Assembly: GCA_030390025.1 (NCBI GenBank) | Contig: CM059431.1 | Location: forward strand, 101,682,001 to 101,746,000 | Direction: 5' to 3' | From: Squalus acanthias | Taxonomy: Eukaryota | Length of the DNA stretch: 64,000 bases | Part shown: piece after piece, positions 2,603 through 63,420 of the stretch | Numbering within the stretch: position 1 is the first letter of the stretch | Layout: every line of letters starts with the position of its first letter | The notes under the pieces: generated by a model | What the model was told of the DNA's origin: nothing | The model's input: the letters and a program-made list of their open reading frames with translations, nothing else | Database searches by the model: none | Program-made: the position numbers and the translations under genes

Positions 2603-5554
2603 TCATGTCCAAATTCCTGCCCGCTCCCCGTAACCCTTAATGCCCTTTACTTCTAGGAAACTGTCTATTTCTGTTTTAAATTTATTTAATGATGTAGCTT
2701 CTACAGCTTTTTGTGGCAGCATATTCCATGGACCTACCACCCTCTGAGTGAAGTAGTTCCTCCTCATCTCAGTTTTGAAAGAGCAGCCCCTTATTCTAAG
2801 ACTATGTCCCCTAGTTCTAGTCTCACCCGTCATCGGAAACATCCTCCCCGCATCCACCCGATCCAACCCCTTCACAATCTTATATGTTTCAATAAGATCG
2901 CCTCTCATTCTTCTGAACTCCAATGAGTAGAGTCCCAATCTACCCAACCTCTCCTCATATGACCACCCCCTCATCCCCGGGATTAACCGAGTGAACCTTT
3001 TTTGCACTGCCTCGAGAGCAAGGATGTCTTTCCTTAAGTAAGGACACCAAAACTGTATGCAGTATTCCAGGTGCGGTCTCACCAATACCTTGTACAACTG
3101 AAGCAATACCTCCCTATTTTTATATTCTATCCCCCTAGCAATGAAAGCCAACATTCCATTTGCCTTCTTAATCACTTGCTGCACCTGCATACTAACCTTT
3201 TGAGTTTCGTGCACCAGGACCCCCAGATCCCTTTGCACTTCAGTACTCTCCAGTTTCTTGCCATTAAGATAATAAATTGCTCTAGGATTTTTCCTGCCAA
3301 AGTGCATCACCTCACACTTTCCAGTGTTGTATTCCATCTGCCAAATCTCTGCCCACTTACTTAGCCTGTCTATGTCCCCTTGCAGGTTTTTTATGTCCTC
3401 CTCACTCACTACTTTCCCTCCCATCTTTGTATCATCTGCAAATTTTGATATGTTACACTTGGTCCCTTCCTCCAAATCGTTAATATAGATTGTGAAGAGT
3501 TGGGGACCCAGCACTGACCCCTGTGGAACACCACTAGTTACTGATTGCCAGTCTGAGAATGAACCATTTATCCCAACTCTTTGCTTTCTGTTAGATAGCC
3601 AATCCTCTATCCATGCCAGAATATTACCCCCAATCCCGTGATTTTTTACCTTAAGCAATAATCTTTTGTGTGGCACCTTGTCAAATGCCTTTTGGAAGTC
3701 TAAATACACTACGTCCACTGGTTCCCCTTTATCCACTCTATATGTTACTTCCTCAAAGAACTCCAGCAAATTTGTCAAACATGACTTCCCCTTCGTAAAA
3801 CCATGCTGACTTTGTCCTATTAAATTATGATTATCCAAATGTCCTGTTACTGTTTCCTTAATAATGGACTCCAAAATTTTACCTACCACAGATGTTAGGC
3901 TAACCGGTCTATAGTTACCAGCCTTCTGTCTACTGCCCTTTTTAAATAAGGGTGTTACATTAGCAGTTTTCCAGTCTGCCGGGACCTTAGCGGAATCCAG
4001 GGAGTTTTGAAAAATTATTACCAATGCATCTACAATCCCTACCGCCACTTCCTTCAAGACTCTAGGATGTAAGCCATCAGGTCCAGGTGATTTATCCGCC
4101 TTGAGTCCCATTATTTTACCGAGTACCACTTCCTTAGTGATTTTGATCGTGTTTAGCTCCTCTCCCCCTATAGCCCCCTGTTTGTCCAGTGTTGGGATAT
4201 TCTTAGTGTCCTCTACTGTAAAGACTGATACAAAATATTCATTCAGTGTTTTTGCCATCTCCATATTTCCCACCATTAATTTCCCGGTCTCATCCTCTAA
4301 GGGACCAACATTTACTTTAGCCACCCTTTTTCTTTTTATATAACTATAAAAACTCCTACTATCTGTTTTTATATTTTTTGCTAATTTACTTTCATAATCT
4401 ATCTTCCCTTTCTTAATCAATCTTTTTGTTATTTTTTGCTGCCTTTTAAAGTTTTCCCAATCCTCTGTCCTCCCACTAGATTTCGCTACCTTATATGCCC
4501 TTGTTTTTAGTCGAATACTATCCTTAATTTCTTTACTTAGCCACGGATGACTGTCCTTTCTTTTACACCCTTTTCTTTTCAGTGGAATATATTTTTTTTG
4601 GAAGTTGTAAAATAACTCCTTGAATGTACACCACTGATCATGTGTCGTCTTACCCTTTAATCTATTTTCCCAATCCACTCTACTCAATTCCGCTCGCATA
4701 CCTTCATAGTCTCCTTTATTCAAGCTTAGCACGCTTGTTTGAGATCCAACCTTCTCACCCTCTAATTGAATATGGAATTCAACCATGTTATGGTCACTCA
4801 TTCCAAGGGGATCCTTTACTAGGACATTTTTAATTAATCCTGTCTCGTTACACAGGACCAGATCTAAGGTTGCTTGCCCCCTGGTCGGTTCAGTTACATA
4901 CTGCTCAAGAAACCCATCCCTAATACACTCAATGAACTCATCCTCAAGGCAGCCCTGCCCCATTTGATTTGTCCAATTAATATGATAGTTAAAATCCCCC
5001 ATAATTATAGATGTTCCCTTATTACATGCCTCAACTATTTCCTGATTGATACTCCGTCCAACAGAGTTGCAACTGTTCGGAGGCCTATAGACTACGCCCA
5101 CTAGTGTTTTTTTCCCCTTATTATTCCTTATCTCCACCCAAACTGTTTCATTATCATGATTTTTTGACCCAATATCATTACTCTGTATTACAGTGATTCC
5201 TTCCTTTATTAACACAGCCACCCCACCTCCCCTTCCTTCCTGCCTGTCCTTCCTGATCGTTAAATAACCTGGTATGTTTAATTCCCAGGCATTGTCACCC
5301 TGCAGCCATGTTTCTGTAATGGCCACAATATCATAACCATATGTAGTTATTTGTGCCATTAACTCGTCTATTTTGTTACGAATGCTACGTGCATTCAGAT
5401 AGAGAACTTTCAAATATGCTTTGTGGCACTTAGTTCCTGCTTTTTCACTTTTTACCACTTTACCTTTTACTCCACACACTCTGTCCCTTCCTGCCACGCT
5501 CTGATTTGTGATTCCCCTACTGCTACCTATGTCTATGACCCTCTCTGTTGTCAT
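2603..5554 (-). CDS. CR1 ORF2: APE endonuclease plus reverse transcriptase (983 aa, uninterrupted)
   Basis: Endonuclease motifs YLNARS, ITETWL, VYRPP, MGDFN, LDLV and SDH; RT motifs YLDFQKAFDKV, GVPQGSVLGP and FADD. Confidence 0.95.
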   Translation of the reverse strand: MTTERVIDIGSSRGITNQSVAGRDRVCGVKGKVVKSEKAGTKCHKAYLKVLYLNARSIRNKIDELMAQITTYGYDIVAITETWLQGDNAWELNIPGYLTIRKDRQEGRGGGVAVLIKEGITVIQSNDIGSKNHDNETVWVEIRNNKGKKTLVGVVYRPPNSCNSVGRSINQEIVEACNKGTSIIMGDFNYHINWTNQMGQGCLEDEFIECIRDGFLEQYVTEPTRGQATLDLVLCNETGLIKNVLVKDPLGMSDHNMVEFHIQLEGEKVGSQTSVLSLNKGDYEGMRAELSRVDWENRLKGKTTHDQWCTFKELFYNFQKKYIPLKRKGCKRKDSHPWLSKEIKDSIRLKTRAYKVAKSSGRTEDWENFKRQQKITKRLIKKGKIDYESKLAKNIKTDSRSFYSYIKRKRVAKVNVGPLEDETGKLMVGNMEMAKTLNEYFVSVFTVEDTKNIPTLDKQGAIGGEELNTIKITKEVVLGKIMGLKADKSPGPDGLHPRVLKEVAVGIVDALVIIFQNSLDSAKVPADWKTANVTPLFKKGSRQKAGNYRPVSLTSVVGKILESIIKETVTGHLDNHNLIGQSQHGFTKGKSCLTNLLEFFEEVTYRVDKGEPVDVVYLDFQKAFDKVPHKRLLLKVKNHGIGGNILAWIEDWLSNRKQRVGINGSFSDWQSVTSGVPQGSVLGPQLFTIYINDLEEGTKCNISKFADDTKMGGKVVSEEDIKNLQGDIDRLSKWAEIWQMEYNTGKCEVMHFGRKNPRAIYYLNGKKLESTEVQRDLGVLVHETQKVSMQVQQVIKKANGMLAFIARGIEYKNREVLLQLYKVLVRPHLEYCIQFWCPYLRKDILALEAVQKRFTRLIPGMRGWSYEERLGRLGLYSLEFRRMRGDLIETYKIVKGLDRVDAGRMFPMTGETRTRGHSLRIRGCSFKTEMRRNYFTQRVVGPWNMLPQKAVEATSLNKFKTEIDSFLEVKGIKGYGERAGIWT

Positions 5555-5592
5555 TTTTATTTTTTGCTCTCTTGAAACCTCCCCCCCACTAA

Positions 5593-6141
5593 TTAGTTTA
5601 AAGCCCTCTCCACAGCCCTAGTTATTCGATTCGCCAGGACACTAGTCCCAGCACTGGCCAAGTGAAGTCCGTCCCAACGGAACAGCTCTCTCCTGCCCCA
5701 GTACTGGTGCCAGTGTCCCAAGAAGCAAAACCCATTTTTCCCACACCAGTCTTTGAGCCACGCATTCAACTCCCTGATTTTATTTACCCTAGCCAAATTT
5801 GCTCGTGGCTCAGGTAGTAATCCAGAGATTATTACCCTCGAGGTTCTGCTTTTTAATTTGGCCCCTAGCTGCTCAAACTCCCTCAGCAGAACCTCTTTCC
5901 TTGTCCTATCTATGTCATTGGTACCAACATGGACCACGACAACTGGATCCTCCCCCTCCCACTCCAAGTTTCTCTCCAGCCCAGAGGAGATGTCCTTAAC
6001 CCTGGCACCGGGCAGGCAACACAGCCTTCGGGACTCTCGCTCTTGGCTGCAAAGAACCCTATCTATCCCCCTAATGATACTATCCCCTACCACTACAACA
6101 TTTCTTTTTACTCCCCCCACTTGAATGGCCCCCCTTACCAC
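5593..6141 (-). CDS. CR1 ORF1 C-terminal SGNH/GDSL esterase domain (5'-truncated)
   Basis: VVVGDSI, CLPGA, HVGTND and DGLHL motifs; ends ERALN-stop. Confidence 0.9.
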   Translation of the reverse strand: MVRGAIQVGGVKRNVVVVGDSIIRGIDRVLCSQERESRRLCCLPGARVKDISSGLERNLEWEGEDPVVVVHVGTNDIDRTRKEVLLREFEQLGAKLKSRTSRVIISGLLPEPRANLARVNKIRELNAWLKDWCGKNGFCFLGHWHQYWGRRELFRWDGLHLASAGTSVLANRITRAVERALN

Positions 6142-7219
6142 GGTGCTGTGGCCAGGTTGCTCATCCTCCCTAAAGAAAATGGAACTTGATTGTATATTCC
6201 AGGCTGAGAACGATAGATTTTTGAACTCTAGGGGAATCGAGGGATATGGAGATCGGGGGGGGGGGGGGGGGGGGGGGGGGGAAAGTGGAGTTGAGGTCGA
6301 TGATCAGCCATGATCTTATTGAATGGCGGAGCAGGCTCGAGGGGCCGTACGGCCGACTCCTGCTCCTAATTCTTATGTTCTTATGACTGAAGTATCAAAA
6401 ATAAAAGCATTCCATGTGTCAGAATCATTCTGTACTGAAGTTCGGAAATTTATAGGAAATAATGATATGCTAATCACAGGCAAGAAAGCAACCAAACGTG
6501 TTACAATGCCTTTCAAGCTCTACTGCGGCCAAAAAAATTCTTCACATTCGTTCATCAGACAGAAAAAGCTCTCAAGTGGTTCTCCTTTTATCTATCTCCC
6601 CTTGCGATTAGTAATTTGAGGTGCAGCAGAGTGTTATTTGTGATGCCAGATACCTATGGAGCAAAACTAAACCGAGCACTGCTTAAAAATTGGATGTGAA
6701 AAAGTTCAAACAGTCACTGTACAGAACAAAAGCAATGAAACTCTCAGTCTCTGTCTCTGATTGAGAGTGGCGGCTGGGACCTCGACTTTGAAGAAGCTTT
6801 GGGTGGGGGGAAGCAGTAACACAATATGCTGCTTTAAGTAGGTTTGAGATATTTGACAACAGGTGCAGAAGGTGTTATACAATCCTGGTTGGGTCAAAGA
6901 ACAACAAACCTGCAACGTTCAGGCACTAATAAATCCGATAGGGAATTCGGGAGAAACTTCTTTACCCAGAGAGTGGTGAGAATGTGGAACTCGCTACCAC
7001 AGGGAGTGGTTGAAGCGAATAGTATGGATGCATTTAAGGGGAAGCTGGATAAACACATGAGGGAAAAGGGAATAGAAGGTTATGCTGATAGAGTGAGATG
7101 ATGTCGTGGTGGGAGGAGGCTCGAGTGGAGCATAAACACCGGCATAGACATGTTGGGCGGAATGGCCTGTTTCTGTGCTGTACATTCTATGCAAAAGGCA
7201 GTTGCACATTTTATGATGA

Positions 7220-30908: not shown

Positions 30909-33900
30909 CACGGAGTGCAGATCGGAACAGAGTGTTAAGCTGCGAGTTTGGTGAGTGAGGGAGTGAGGGGAGGGAGGTGTTCCTTTCTTTTTCCATCTTT
31001 GTCAGCTTCCAGGAGAGCAGGAACTAAAAAGCTGCACAAGAGGGGACAGAGAACCAGCGGTGAGTATTTCTACAGTATTTCTACATTCCAGTCATTAAAG
31101 TAAAAGTAAGGTCTCTAGTTTAGAGTAAGTAGTGTTTAAAGGGAAGTAAGGTCCCTAGTGTATTTAATATTCTTTAATTTAAAGGGAGTAACTTAAGGGT
31201 AGGACATGGCAGGGCAGCTCGGCAGCATGGACTGCTCCTCCTGTGCTATGTTGGAAGTCGGGGATACTTTAGGTGTCCAGGGTGAACACATGTGCAGGAA
31301 GTGTCTCCAGCTGCAGCTACTCGAAATCCGCGTTTCGGAGCTGGAGCGGCGGCTGGAGTCACTGTGGAGCATCCGCGAAGCTGAGATCTTCGTGGATAGC
31401 ACGTTTAACAAGGTGGTCACACCGCAGGTAAAGAGTGCACAGGCAGACAGGGAATGGGTGACCGCCAGACAGAGTAAAAGAACAAGGAAGGTAGTGCAGG
31501 AGTCCCCTGGGTCCATCTCTCTCTCTGACAGATTTTCCCTTTTTGGATACTGATGGGGGAGATGGTTTCTCAGGGGAATGCAGCAAGAGCCAAGTCCGTG
31601 GCACTAAGAGTGGCTCAATTGCACAGTAGGGGAAGAAAAAGAGTGGGAGAGCAATAGTGAAAGGGGATTCTATCGAAAGGCGAACAGATAGACGTTTCTG
31701 TGGCCACAGACGTGACTCCAGGATGGTATGTTGCCTCCCTGGTGCCAGGGTCAAGGATGTCACTGAACAGGCTGCAGGGCATTCTGAAGGGGGAGGGCGA
31801 ACAGTCAGAGGTCGTGGTTCACATTGGTACCAACGACATGGGTAGAAAGAGGGATGAGGTCCTGCAACAAGAATTTAGGGAGCTAGGTAGCAGATTAAAA
31901 AGCAGGACCTCAAAGGTTGTAATCTCTGGATTACTCCCGGTGCCACGTGCTAGTGAGTATAGGAATAGAAGGATAGAGCAGATGAATGCGTGGCTAAAGA
32001 GTTGGTGCAGGAGGGAGGGCTTTAGTTCCCTGGATCACTGGGTCTGCTTCTGGAGAAGGTGGGACCTGTACAAGTCGGACGGGTTGCACCTGAACTGGAA
32101 CGGGACCAACATCCTTGCGGGGAGGTTTGCTAGTACTGTTGGGGGGGGGTTTAAACTAACTTGGCAGGGGGATGGGATACGGAGTGGAGCTATAGTAGGG
32201 GGTGATGCACAGCCAAATATAGAGGAAAAAACAAGTCAGCCTGGAAGGCAGAGCAAATATGTAACGGCACAAGGGAGTATGGCAAGGCTGGATGGCATTT
32301 ATTTTAATGCAAGGAGTCTTGCGAGTAAGGCAGATGAATTGAAGGTGTTGATGAACACATGGGAGTATGATATTGTTGCTATCACAGAGACATGGTTGAG
32401 GGAGGGGCAGGACTGGCAGCTCAATATTCCGGGGTCTAGAATCTTCAGGCGAGACAGAGGGGGGTGTAAAAGAGGAAGGGGATGTCGCAATATTAATCAA
32501 GGAGTCAATTACTGCTGTAAGGAGGGATGATATCTTAGCAGGTTCCTCTAATAAGGCCATATGGGTAGAACTTAAAAACAAAAAGGGGGCAAGCACTTTG
32601 CTGGGAGTGTACTATAGGCCCCCAAACAGTCAGGGGGAGATAGAGGAATAGATATGTAGGCAAATCTCAGAGAAGTGTAGAAATAATAGGGTAATAATAG
32701 TAGGGGATTTCAACTTCCCCAATATTAACTGGGATAGTCAGTGTGTGAAAGGCTTAGAGGGTGCGGAATTCTTAAAGTGCATCCAGGAGAGCTTTTTGAG
32801 CCAGCATGTAGAAAGTCCTACAAGAGAGGGGGCGGTACTGGACCTAATTCTAGGGAATGTAGCCGGGCAAGTAGTAGAAGTGTTAGTAGGAGAGCATTTT
32901 GGTGACAGTGACTATAATTCAGTGAGATTTAAGGTAGTCATGGAAAAGGACAAAGATGGACCGGAAATAAAGGTTCTAAATTGGGGGAAGGCCGATTTTA
33001 ATATGATAAGGCAGGATCTGGCCAAAGTGTACTGGGATCAGCTACTTGTAGGAAAATCCACATCAGAGCAGTGGGAGTCTTTCAGAAAGGAAATAGAGAG
33101 AGTACAACGCCAACATGTTCCCGTAAAGGTCAAGGGTGGGACCAACAAGCCCAGGGAACCCTGGATGTCAAGGGATATACGAGAATGGATTAGGAAAAAA
33201 AGGGAGGCTTTTGGCAGATACAAAGGACTAAAAACAGTGGAAGCCCTAGAGGAGTATAGAAAGTGCAGGGGGTTACTTAACAAAAAGAAATTAGGAGAGC
33301 GAAGAGGGGGCATGAAAAAACACTGGCGGGCAAAATAAAGGAAAATCCCAAGGTGTTTTATAAGTATATTAAGGGCAAGAGGATAACCAGGGAAAGAGTA
33401 GGGCCCATTAGGGACCAAAGTGGCAATCTGTGTGTAGAGCCGGAAGATGTAGGCGAGGTTTTAAATGAATATTTTGCATCTGAGTTCACTATGGAGAAGG
33501 ACGATGTAGACACAGAAAGGTGTGTGGATGAGGGTAGTGCAGTTGATGTGGTCTACACGGACTTCAGTCAGGCTTTTGACAAAGTCCCGCATGGGAGACT
33601 GGTCAAGAAGGTAAGAGCCCATGGGATCCAGGGCAACTTGGCACATTGGATCCAAAATTGGCTTAGTTGCAGGAGGCAGAGGGTGATGGTCGAATGTTGT
33701 TTTTGTGACTGGAAGCCTGTGTCCAGTGGTGTACCAGCAGGGATCGGTGCTGGGTCCTTTGCTGTTTGTAGTGTACATTAATGATTTCGATATGAATGTA
33801 GGAGGTATGATCAGTAAGTTCGCAGATGACACGAAAATTGGTGGGGTGGTAAATAGCGAGGAGGGAAGCCTCAGGCTACAGGACGATATAGACGGGTTGG

Positions 33901-60964: not shown

Positions 60965-63420
60965 TCAGAATGGACCGTTGTCCAGTGCTTCCAAGTTGTG
61001 TGTCATCTGCAAATTTTGAAATTGTGCCCCGTACACCCACGTCCAAGTCATTAATATATATATATCAAGAAAAGCAGTGGTCCTAGAACCGACCCCCGGG
61101 GAACACCACTGTATACCTTCCTCCAGTCCGAAAAACAACCATTCACCACTACTCTGTTTCCTGTCACTTAGCCAATTTTGTATCCATGCTGCCATTGTCC
61201 CTTTTATTCCATGGGCTTCAACTTTGTCAAACGCCTTTTGGAAATCCATGTACACTACGTCAACCGCATTGCCCTCATCAACCCTCTCTGTTATCTCATC
61301 GTAAAACTCAATCGAGTTGGTTAAACACGATTTGCCTTTAACAAATCCGCGCTGGCTTTCCTTAATTAATCCACACTTGTCCAAGTGACTGTTAATTTTG
61401 TCCCTGATTATTGTTTCTAAAAGATTCTCCACTACCAAGGTTAAACTGACTGGCCTGTAGTTGCTGGGTTTATCTTTACACCCTTTTTTGAACAAGGGTG
61501 TAACATTTGCAATTTTCCAGTCTTTTGGCACCACCGCCGTTTCGAAGGAGGATTGGAAGATTATGGCCAGTACCTCCGCGATTTCTTCCTTCACTTCCCT
61601 CAGCGTCCTAGGATGCATCCCATCTGGTCTTGGTGACTTATCAACTTTAAGTACAGCCAGCCTTTCTAGTACCTCTATCAATTTTTATCCCATCCAGTAT
61701 CTCCACGACCTCCTCCTTCACTATGTCTATGGCAGCATCTTCTTCCTTGATGAAGACAGATGTAAAGTACTCATTTAGCACCTCAGCCATGCCCTCTGCC
61801 TCCATGCGTAGGTCTCCTTTTTGGTCCCTAATCGGCCCCACCCCTCCTCTTACTACCCGTTTACTATGCCTATAGAAGACTTTTGGATTACCTGTTATGT
61901 TAGCTGCCATTCTATTCTCATACCCTCTCTTTGCCCCTCTTATTTTCTTTTTCACTTCTCATCTGAACTTTCTATATTTAGCCTGATTATCAGATGTATT
62001 CTCGACCTGACATCTGTCATACGCCCTCTTTTTCTGCTTCTTCTTACTCTCTATCTCTTTCGTCATCCAGGGAGCTCTGACTTTAGTTGCCCTACCTTTC
62101 CCCCTGGTGGGAATGTACCTCGACTGTACTCAAACCATCTCCTCGATTACAGTTTTGCCTGCCAATCTTTGATTACAATTTACCCGGGCCAGATCCGTTC
62201 TCATCCCACTGAAATTGGCCTTCTTCCAATTAAGTATTTTTACTCTAGATTGCTCCCTGTCCTTTTCCATAGCTAATCTAAACCTTATGATACTATGATC
62301 ACTGTTCCCTAAATGTTCCCCTACTGACACTTGCTCCACTTGACCCACCTCATTCCCCAGAACCAGATCCAGCAATGCCTCCTTCCTCGTTGGGCCGGAA
62401 ACATACTGATTAAGAAAGTTCTTCTGAACATGCTTCAGAAATTCTTCCCCTTCTCTGCCCTTTACACTATTATGATCCTAGTCTATATTAGGATAGTTGA
62501 AGTCCCCCATTATTGCTACTCTATAGTTCTTGCACCTCTCTGTAATTTCTCTGCAAATTTGCTCCTCCATATCTTTCCCACTATTTGGTGGTCTATAGAA
62601 TACACCTGGTAGTGTAATGGCACCTCTATTATTTCTTAACTCTAGCCATATAGATTCTGTCCTTGACCCCTCCAGGACATCTTCTCTCTCCAGCACTGTA
62701 ACATTCTCCTTAATCAGTACTCCCACACCACCTCCCATCTTTCCTTCCCTATCTTTCCTGAACACCTTATAACCAGGAATATTTCATACCCAATCCTGCC
62801 CTTTTTTGAGCCAGGTCTCAGTTATTGTCACAACACCATATTCCCATGTGGCTATTTGTGCCTGCAGCTCACTTACCTTGTTTACTACGCTTCGTGCGTT
62901 CACATACGTACACTGTAAACCCATCTTAGACCATCCTGTATTCTCTCTTAGTCTGACCCCATCTAAGACCTTACTATTTCTTGCTTTTGTGCTATCTGTC
63001 TCTCCCAATCCTTTGAACACTCTATTTCTCCTTTCTCATGTTACATCCTGGTGCCCATCCCTCTGCCAAATTAGTTTAAACCCTCCCCAACCACAGTAGC
63101 AAACTTCCCCACGAGGATATTGGTTTCGGCCCTGTTGAGGTTCAACCTGTCCGGCCTGAACAGATCCCACCTCCCCCAGAACCGGTCCCAGGAATCTGAA
63201 GCCTTCCCTTCTGCACCATCTCTCCAGTCACACATTCATCTGCTCTATCCTCCTATTTCTATACTCGCTCATGCGTGACACCGGGAGTAATCCGGAGATT
63301 ACTACCTTTGAAGTCCTGCTTTTTAATCTCTTTCCTAGGTCCCTGAAATCTCTCTGCAGGAGCTCATCCCTCTTTCTACCCTGTGTCGTTGGCACCGATA
63401 TGGACCACGACCTCTGGCTG
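60965..63420 (-). mobile_element. Older decayed CR1 (copy C): esterase end, endonuclease and part of RT
   Basis: Fragments YVNARSVVNKV, YRPPNS, MGDFNYP, LGNSDH and YMDFQKAFDKV, with several frameshifts and deletions. Confidence 0.88.

Follow-up and report, generated by a model that had tools for sequence, protein, structure and literature searches.

A candidate -1 ribosomal frameshift signal at the ORF1-ORF2 junction of CR1-type LINEs

The window analysed here is a stretch of 64,000 nucleotides from Squalus acanthias (assembly GCA_030390025.1, contig CM059431.1, positions 101,682,001 to 101,746,000 of the forward strand). It carries on its minus strand a CR1-type long interspersed nuclear element (LINE), termed copy 1, whose two open reading frames (ORFs) meet at a slippery heptamer, and a -1 programmed ribosomal frameshift at this point would probably join the two ORF products in this type of LINE. 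CR1 predominates among the LINEs of birds and reptiles and is frequent in many fishes as well. The ORF1 frame of copy 1 (5593-6303, minus strand) is 5'-truncated, lacks an ATG and encodes a GDSL/SGNH esterase ending ...RAVERALN, which matched PF13472 (SGNH/GDSL esterase) at 42.2 bits against a cutoff of 32.9. The best named relative among the matches listed was a 315-amino-acid (aa) stingray ORF1-like protein with 83% identity; proteins of catshark and chimaera came next. Full-length ORF1 proteins resemble this frame only from about 45 residues in, and the N-terminal Cys-rich and coiled-coil part present in relatives of 311-330 aa is missing from it. The ORF2 frame (2603-5617, minus strand) lies at -1 relative to ORF1, extends over 1004 codons from stop to stop and encodes an endonuclease and a reverse transcriptase. 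From its first ATG (5554-5552) to the stop at 2603 it is intact at 983 aa, with PF03372 and PF14529 at residues 54-258 and PF00078 at residues 540-756. Copy 1 is a dead, 5'-truncated copy in which the signal is still intact. The label CR1 is based on the type of ORF1 and the resemblance of its protein to turtle and bird counterparts, not on a reverse transcriptase tree, and is not extended to four more distant loci discussed below (L028, L038, L039 and L044). The ORF1 corresponds to type IV, esterase, in the Metcalfe and Casane scheme as given in the available part of that study (PMC4120745).

On the minus strand, ORF1 of copy 1 ends GAG AGG GCT TTA AAC TAA, with GCT TTA AAC TAA at 5604-5593, in agreement with a first-pass annotation of the stretch, which had placed an in-phase heptamer at 5596-5602 directly before the stop. 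The heptamer, T_TTA_AAC (5596-5602, minus strand), stands in the X_XXY_YYZ phase of ORF1 and supplies its final two sense codons, Leu-Asn, and the TAA stop (5593-5595, minus strand) adjoins it. Read at -1 across the junction, the sequence is TTT AAA CTA ATT AGT GGG GGG GAG ... ATG. This frame begins at 5617, preceded by a TAG at 5620-5618, and therefore opens only five codons upstream of the heptamer, so that any shift joining the ORFs must occur at the heptamer or at most five codons before it. From 5617 the frame is open as far as 2603, and the earlier statement that it runs stop-free into the 983-aa ORF2 is borne out. The stretch from the ORF1 stop to the first ORF2-frame ATG (5555-5592, minus strand) has no stops in the -1 frame, and its translation would require a frameshift or a non-AUG start. 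A G7 run (5581-5587, minus strand) starts 8 nucleotides (nt) past the heptamer and is a candidate stimulator or, alternatively, a set of conserved Gly-rich linker codons.

The sequence TTTAAACTAA occurs exactly three times in the window, at 5593-5602 (minus strand), 32150-32159 (plus strand) and 63071-63080 (minus strand), and each match is one of the three ORF1 3' ends located by tblastn. When up to one mismatch was allowed, 14 matches were obtained where 6.0 would be expected, a number that none of 100 shuffles reached. The first-pass annotation had reported TTTAAAC-TAA in the same phase in all three copies and had built an argument on that constancy. The sequence is indeed present in all three, and the phase was confirmed for copy 3, which reads GGT TTA AAC TAA (63071-63080, minus strand) with ORF2 in the -1 frame, but not for copy 2. 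There, TTTAAAC followed by TAA (32150-32159, plus strand) is preceded by a run of nine G (32141-32149, plus strand) that sets ORF1 in frame with TTT AAA CTA and ORF2, and eight G in place of nine would be needed to match the phase of copy 1. Since related proteins end GG(G)LN, this copy is most likely off its family by one G. Copy 3 has decayed, with an ORF1 broken by a frameshift and stops and a TGA at codon 15 of its -1 linker (63036-63038, minus strand). By itself, the window holds one clean junction and two decayed ones. Given the phase of copy 2 and the linker stop of copy 3, the argument from constant phase is weaker than had been put forward.

The endonuclease motif lies at codons 68, 51 and 59 of copies 1, 2 and 3, respectively, which gives linkers of 67, 50 and 58 codons; these lengths, and a first ORF2-frame ATG at codon 17, 44 and 53, were recounted as originally reported. 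Little similarity had been noted between the linkers, and this is so in comparisons with copy 1, but copies 2 and 3 are alike over the first ~27 nt. A G-rich tract had been placed 6-9 nt downstream in every copy. The run starts 8 nt past the heptamer in copy 1 (seven G) and 10 nt past it in copy 2 (five G), and copy 3 has G3 runs only. As side observations, TTTAAACTAA was also seen in the CR1 ORF2 3' region of a bird-like locus (L051:1774-1783), so the 10-mer is not junction-specific, and CR1 3' fragments crowd the window. ORF2 gave tblastn matches in more than 30 places on both strands, mostly to its last 100-300 residues, as expected of 5'-truncated LINE insertions.

The ORF1 C terminus was then compared across species. 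Of 120 listed longer proteins related to the esterase part, 92 end at most 45 residues past the DGxH motif, and these were taken as natural ends. Leu-Asn forms the C terminus in 78 of the 92, and in 73 the distance from the DGxH motif to the end is exactly 26 residues. The hosts are sharks, rays, chimaera, coelacanth, ray-finned fishes, frogs, turtles, lizards and birds, and relatives of 311-330 aa combine an N-terminal Cys-rich motif with the esterase. In a 14-sequence ORF1 alignment (A2), the final two columns do not vary at all, and of the 17 before them most do. The residue before Leu-Asn is of 12 types, and 75 of the 78 could be encoded as NNT, the exceptions being three Glu. Among more distant ORF1 representatives with natural ends, Leu-Asn was found in 26 of 86, Gly-Asn (mostly Gln-Gly-Asn) in nine and another ending in 51.

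The DNA of related elements was examined by scanning metagenome contigs with A2, which was used because a 50-sequence alignment (A1) was too diverse for a locus search. The scan located 55 loci, 34 of which end before the ORF1 C terminus and were excluded; of the 21 examined, two break off shortly before ORF1 is complete, and the other 19 were scored. T_TTA_AAC was present in 15 of these and mutated in two, and the remaining two carried T_TTT_TTA in phase, one codon before the stop (L038:1182-1188 and L039:1472-1478). A stop codon (TAA, TAG or TGA) adjoins T_TTA_AAC in 13 of the 15 loci that bear it. Scans of viral contigs with ORF1, A2 and A3, the alignment of a sister clade, found no relative.

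The near invariance of Leu-Asn in the proteins raises the question of whether selection acts only on the C terminus of ORF1, with the heptamer a by-product or chance. Selection of that kind would permit six Leu codons, two Asn codons and any preceding base. In a codon control comprising 15 ORF1 ends with 23-34% protein identity to copy 1, however, the terminal Leu was TTA in 14 of 14, the terminal Asn was AAC in 12 of 12, and the third-last codon ended in T in 15 of 15 (GCT, GGT, TCT, TAT, AAT or TTT, encoding Ala, Gly, Ser, Tyr, Asn or Phe). All other conserved columns vary synonymously, Leu columns using 4-5 codons and one Asn column being AAT in 12 and AAC in three, and the background shares are 15% for TTA among Leu codons, 32% for AAC among Asn codons and 27% for a third-position T. 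Fixation of the heptamer at synonymous sites places selection on the nucleotides and not on Leu-Asn alone, which makes the protein-only explanation most improbable, and it confirms the conservation over synonymous Leu-Asn codons that the first-pass annotation had proposed as a check.

Other ORF1 tails were also recorded. The sister esterase-ORF1 clade (A3: P0158, P0159, P0161, P0163, P0172, P0177, P0189 and others) has an invariable Gly-Asn end, mostly Gln-Gly-Asn. Such ends could be encoded CAG GGA AAC, which would give the slip site G_GGA_AAC. The A3 scan of genome contigs yielded no DNA junction of the Gln-Gly-Asn type, its matches being bacterial hydrolases and a few LINE contigs of other type (L056 and L058). 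The tails of P0183, P0174, P0217, P0243 and P0259 have x-Phe-Leu a few residues before the end, and P0259, which reads His-Phe-Leu-Asn and then continues, may combine both heptamers. In addition, a CR1 ORF1 esterase is present in several public gene models that bear the names of host genes (P0024, P0027, P0065, P0073, P0083, P0085 and P0089), among them hydroxyacid oxidase 2, 40S ribosomal protein S24, steryl-sulfatase and beta-parvin. These models look like annotation artefacts from transposon insertions.

The frame of ORF2 relative to the heptamer was fixed. The endonuclease domain lies in the heptamer's -1 frame at all 16 junctions that reach it, and the linker is free of stops in 13 of the 16, the exceptions being copy 3, L003 and L035. 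The proposed check that the -1 linker be in phase and stop-free across CR1 junctions was thus answered positively for phase at every junction, but with stops in three linkers. When frames were assigned by tblastn, ORF2 was at -1 in nine of 12 cases, and the other three (L007, L009 and L025) have broken ORF1 frames. The -1 frame opens just 1-5 codons upstream of the heptamer in ten junctions. L002, L004 and L038 have longer overlaps, and these contain no canonical heptamer in phase other than that at the end of ORF1. Start codons are late or missing in several lineages. L028, L044 and L039 have open ORF2 frames of 835, 782 and 819 codons, with the first ATG at codons 198, 186 and 472, respectively, and L038 has no ATG over 173 ORF2-frame codons. 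The ATG of L028 falls within the endonuclease domain (78-285), that of L039 within or beyond the domain (from about residue 80 by Pfam), and that of L044 well past an endonuclease motif near codon 50; in the turtle-like L025 and L035 the first ATG comes only within the endonuclease motif. A whole endonuclease could therefore not be made from an AUG start in any of these loci.

Further copies in the same genome were sampled with contigs of the presumed source run (3058 contigs) and of three further runs, aligned to 5380-5820 at a likeness of at least 80%. Contig depth is 3-10 fold higher on 5590-5634, which holds the last ORF1 codons, the heptamer and the stop, than on the flanks, so that this block is common to more subfamilies than its surroundings. 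Among the variants listed, none falls in 5593-5607, and positions 5608 and 5611 vary in more than 100 contigs each; with 66 weaker variants outside this set, a variant-free 5593-5607 is not proof of invariance. Moreover, 54 contigs diverge just past the stop, and their loose ends, from other subfamilies, are G-rich in the orientation of the element. That runs X13 and X17 are RNA is a guess, and their junction contigs are no sign of transcription. Raw reads of run X21 contributed seven reads on this stretch, a number too small to be informative. Separately, the summed contig depth of the source run drops from ~250,000 to ~400-700 over 5500-5529, in the ORF2 5' region, with deep flanks; filters can cause such holes.

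These contigs bear on two explanations in which the ribosome plays no part. The frame could be changed at the RNA or DNA level, by polymerase slippage in a G-run or by editing, as might be thought from copy 2, which as it stands is a direct ORF1-ORF2 fusion (...GGG TTT AAA CTA... in one open frame, 31661-32530), and from the ray gene model P0024, which has the same ...GG/FKL... fusion; both run in frame through a G-run just before the heptamer. Copy 1, however, has no homopolymer before its heptamer, the upstream G-run is limited to one subfamily, and no indel near 5560-5620 was present among the listed variants of DNA or presumed RNA contigs, which drop rare variants. We regard a change of this kind as scarcely credible. 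The second explanation is concerned with RNA processing. UUUAAA occurs as a rare variant of the poly(A) hexamer, and a G-rich tract can function as a downstream element. As both are conserved here at the nucleotide level, they could form a weak polyadenylation signal inside the element, or a different RNA element or protein-binding site, that gives rise to ORF1-only transcripts, and the resemblance to a slip site would be coincidental. This would leave unexplained why the T preceding TTA, the C following AAA and the phase are fixed, together with the -1 frame of ORF2, the missing ATGs and T_TTT_TTA, which is not poly(A)-like. Contigs also cross the site with no pile-up of ends among those listed, though contigs are poor evidence on RNA ends, and altogether this explanation appears quite improbable.

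The sequence downstream of the slip site was searched for a stimulator. Among the more distant loci, the hairpin of L039 has 12 bp (z score -4.5; 0 of 200 shuffles), that of L044, a GC hairpin, has 8 bp (z -2.0), and L028 has a stem of 8 bp, each starting ~6-10 nt past the slip site. A G-run of at least five within 33 nt was found at 13 of 20 junctions, compared with 3.4% of 5383 background windows, and its onset was 8-11 nt past the heptamer in 12 of the 13, the exception being L035 at 17 nt. The G-run is read in the -1 frame as Gly-rich codons, and either the RNA or the peptide is a candidate for the active form. Folding of the junctions turned up no pseudoknot, no dedicated pseudoknot search having been made.

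A number of observations weigh against frameshifting as the route to ORF2. Within the window, there are the direct fusion in copy 2, the linker stop in copy 3 and the ATG of copy 1, which at codon 17 is 38 nt beyond the ORF1 stop. No stable hairpin was found 5-9 nt downstream in the window copies or in the bird-like or turtle-like loci (z -0.7 to +1.7), and the first-pass remark that no clear hairpin is visible in the window holds apart from a single 90-nt window of copy 1 (z -2.6), which was absent at 60 or 120 nt when the window copies were folded at 40-120 nt; the 70-nt folds gave z +0.4 and +1.1. In the bird-like loci RNAalifold returned a weak hairpin ~28 nt downstream, with a consensus energy of -5.8 kcal/mol and no compensatory pairs, and a G-quadruplex was predicted in copy 2 only, in a two-layer form, with none in copies 1 and 3. 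Two distant esterase-ORF1 LINEs are built differently, since ORF2 of L058 is in frame 0 behind the stop and L056 has a 157-nt ORF1/ORF2 overlap without a canonical heptamer, and the signal is thus not universal among esterase-ORF1 LINEs. The metagenome loci are mutually dependent, falling into about six lineages grouped by eye and not by a tree, and the 34 that end early are uninformative. Finally, to our knowledge no LINE has been reported to make a fusion protein of ORF1 and ORF2. It was observed in passing that L056, L057, L058 and L062, LINE ORF1-ORF2 pairs with endonuclease and reverse transcriptase, are filed under bacterial metagenome-assembled genomes, and these contigs are likely to be eukaryotic contamination.

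To the same side of the balance belong the start codons that lie close to the ORF1 stop. In five of nine bird-like loci an ORF2-frame ATG follows 2 nt after the stop (codon 5), and the turtle-like L046 reads TTTAAACTAATGG at 2992-3006, where the ORF1 stop overlaps an ORF2-frame ATG as UAAUG. These starts, the ATG of copy 1 16 codons downstream and the want of a stable stimulatory hairpin in the window copies are what would be expected under the main rival explanation, namely that ORF2 is translated by termination-reinitiation or AUG-independent initiation and the heptamer is kept for some other reason at the RNA level. This is also the idea favoured for LINEs in reviews, in whose available text the mechanism is described as unclear (PMC3708506, PMC3894237, PMC5009743). 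Reinitiation predicts no fixed frame, however, yet all 16 junctions that reach the endonuclease have it at -1 relative to the heptamer. It also leaves unexplained the synonymous-site fixation of the slip site and its in-phase replacement by T_TTT_TTA, and it would need a non-AUG restart in the four families that have no ATG before the endonuclease domain. In copy 1 there is no restart codon overlapping the ORF1 stop or within a few nt of it. We therefore consider this explanation unlikely, although it is the least so of the rivals.

By comparison, -1 programmed ribosomal frameshifting at the ORF1 end is the probable source of an ORF1-ORF2 fusion in this CR1-type LINE. As a computational proposal, the interpretation offered by the first-pass annotation is supported by relatives outside the window, through the synonymous fixation, T_TTT_TTA, the constant frame and the missing ATGs. 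These sequences are independent of the window's own copies and support the hypothesis strongly, even as the argument drawn from within the window has lost weight. We infer the slippage itself, its efficiency and its stimulator from sequence comparison.

The mechanism would operate as follows. Most ribosomes would read UUA as Leu and AAC as Asn, and translation would end at the adjoining stop with release of the esterase-type ORF1 protein. A minority would slip back one base on U_UUA_AAC, the P-site pairing moving from UUA to UUU and that of the A-site from AAC to AAA, and would resume at CUA in the -1 frame, passing through the linker into the endonuclease-reverse transcriptase to give a gag-pol-style fusion. 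Slippage would in this way set a low ORF2:ORF1 ratio and tie the ORF2 protein to the RNA that encodes it. As candidate stimulator, vertebrate lineages have the G-run 8-11 nt downstream and the more distant ones have a C/G hairpin, and the adjoining stop codon may assist by slowing decoding in the A-site.

A broader reading is more doubtful, and we put it forward only tentatively. Slip site, stop and G-run might together be an ancient recoding cassette and the general route to ORF2 expression in esterase-ORF1 CR1-type LINEs, with sister clades using other heptamers and the G-run serving as a non-hairpin stimulator. Being common to cartilaginous fish and birds, such a cassette would plausibly be more than 400 million years old. 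If this were so, the other heptamers would be T_TTT_TTA, which has been seen, and G_GGA_AAC, which is suspected from the Gln-Gly-Asn tails, and the G-run could stimulate as a quadruplex, by pairing with ribosomal RNA or through the nascent Gly-rich peptide. There would then be no single rule for the translation of LINE ORF2, and the L1 model would be an exception among vertebrate LINE clades.

How ORF2 is translated from a bicistronic LINE RNA is a long-standing open question. The predicted ORF1-ORF2 fusion protein bears on cis-preference and on particle assembly. A slip site at the exact end of ORF1 would offer an annotation rule for joining the two ORFs, and the G-run may represent a new kind of stimulator. 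A literature search found no paper linking CR1 to a slip site or to ribosomal frameshifting; older papers on chicken and turtle CR1 and on esterase-type ORF1 proteins were outside its reach. In the available text of a 2016 review of recoding, the only non-LTR (long terminal repeat) elements named are HeT-A, TART and mammalian L1 (PMC5009743). The translation of ORF2 in non-LTR elements is called unclear in the accessible portions of a 2013 paper (PMC3708506) and a 2013 review (PMC3894237), and the word 'frameshift' does not occur in the latter, on non-LTR protein biogenesis. Likewise, the portion available of a 2014 study of ORF1 in the Jockey superfamily contains no statement on the junction (PMC4120745).

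Among known systems, mammalian L1 is comparable in having a bicistronic LINE RNA, a short inter-ORF spacer and a low level of ORF2. We know of no slip site described for the L1 spacer. L1 ORF2 is described as being translated by an unconventional, AUG-independent termination-reinitiation, and the available text of these sources mentions neither a slip site nor a frame rule for L1, whereas both the frame relation and the heptamer are conserved in the elements studied here (PMC5009743, PMC3708506). In SART1, ORF2 expression depends on UAAUG stop-start coupling and a downstream RNA structure, according to Kojima et al. 2005 as cited in the consulted portions of PMC3708506 and PMC3894237. The present elements are similar in that ORF2 expression would be tied to the ORF1 stop and a downstream structure may matter, and L046 has the UAAUG itself. 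However, SART1 restarts at an AUG, a codon that is missing from the stop in most of the CR1 junctions studied and from the whole stretch ahead of the endonuclease in four families. ORF2 of the Dictyostelium elements TRE5-A and TRE3-A is said, in the part of the source available, to need a -1 frameshift (PMC5911963). Like the present LINE they are non-LTR retrotransposons whose ORF2 lies at -1 and for which a frameshift is inferred, but they belong to another clade and have another type of ORF1, and the likeness is one of description and not of compared slip sites.

The ORF1a/1b junction of coronaviruses and arteriviruses has the identical U_UUA_AAC heptamer and the same -1 direction. In those viruses a pseudoknot lies 5-7 nt downstream and the two ORFs overlap over a long stretch. 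Here, in contrast, the 0-frame stop adjoins the heptamer and no pseudoknot turned up in folding, which included no dedicated search for one. The gag-pol frameshifting of LTR elements is covered by a survey cited in PMC5009743, as far as the available text of that review goes. Compared with gag-pol, the host of the present signal is a non-LTR LINE with an esterase ORF1 and no protease to split the fusion, the vertebrate copies carry a G-run instead of a hairpin or pseudoknot, and the system is known from sequence alone. Nevertheless, the arrangement is that of retroviral and LTR gag-pol junctions. In both, the upstream structural or RNA-binding ORF ends at or just past an X_XXY_YYZ heptamer, a fusion at low ratio is expected, and the enzyme ORF is placed at -1; as in gag-pol, it lacks its own start codon in several lineages here. 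Conservation of synonymous sites, exchange of the heptamer for another canonical one in phase, and a structure or G-run at the distance of a stimulator complete the pattern. In Rous sarcoma virus, the gag stop comes directly after the slip site, and the heptamer of L038 and L039 is of the HIV type, matching the U_UUU_UUA of HIV-1.

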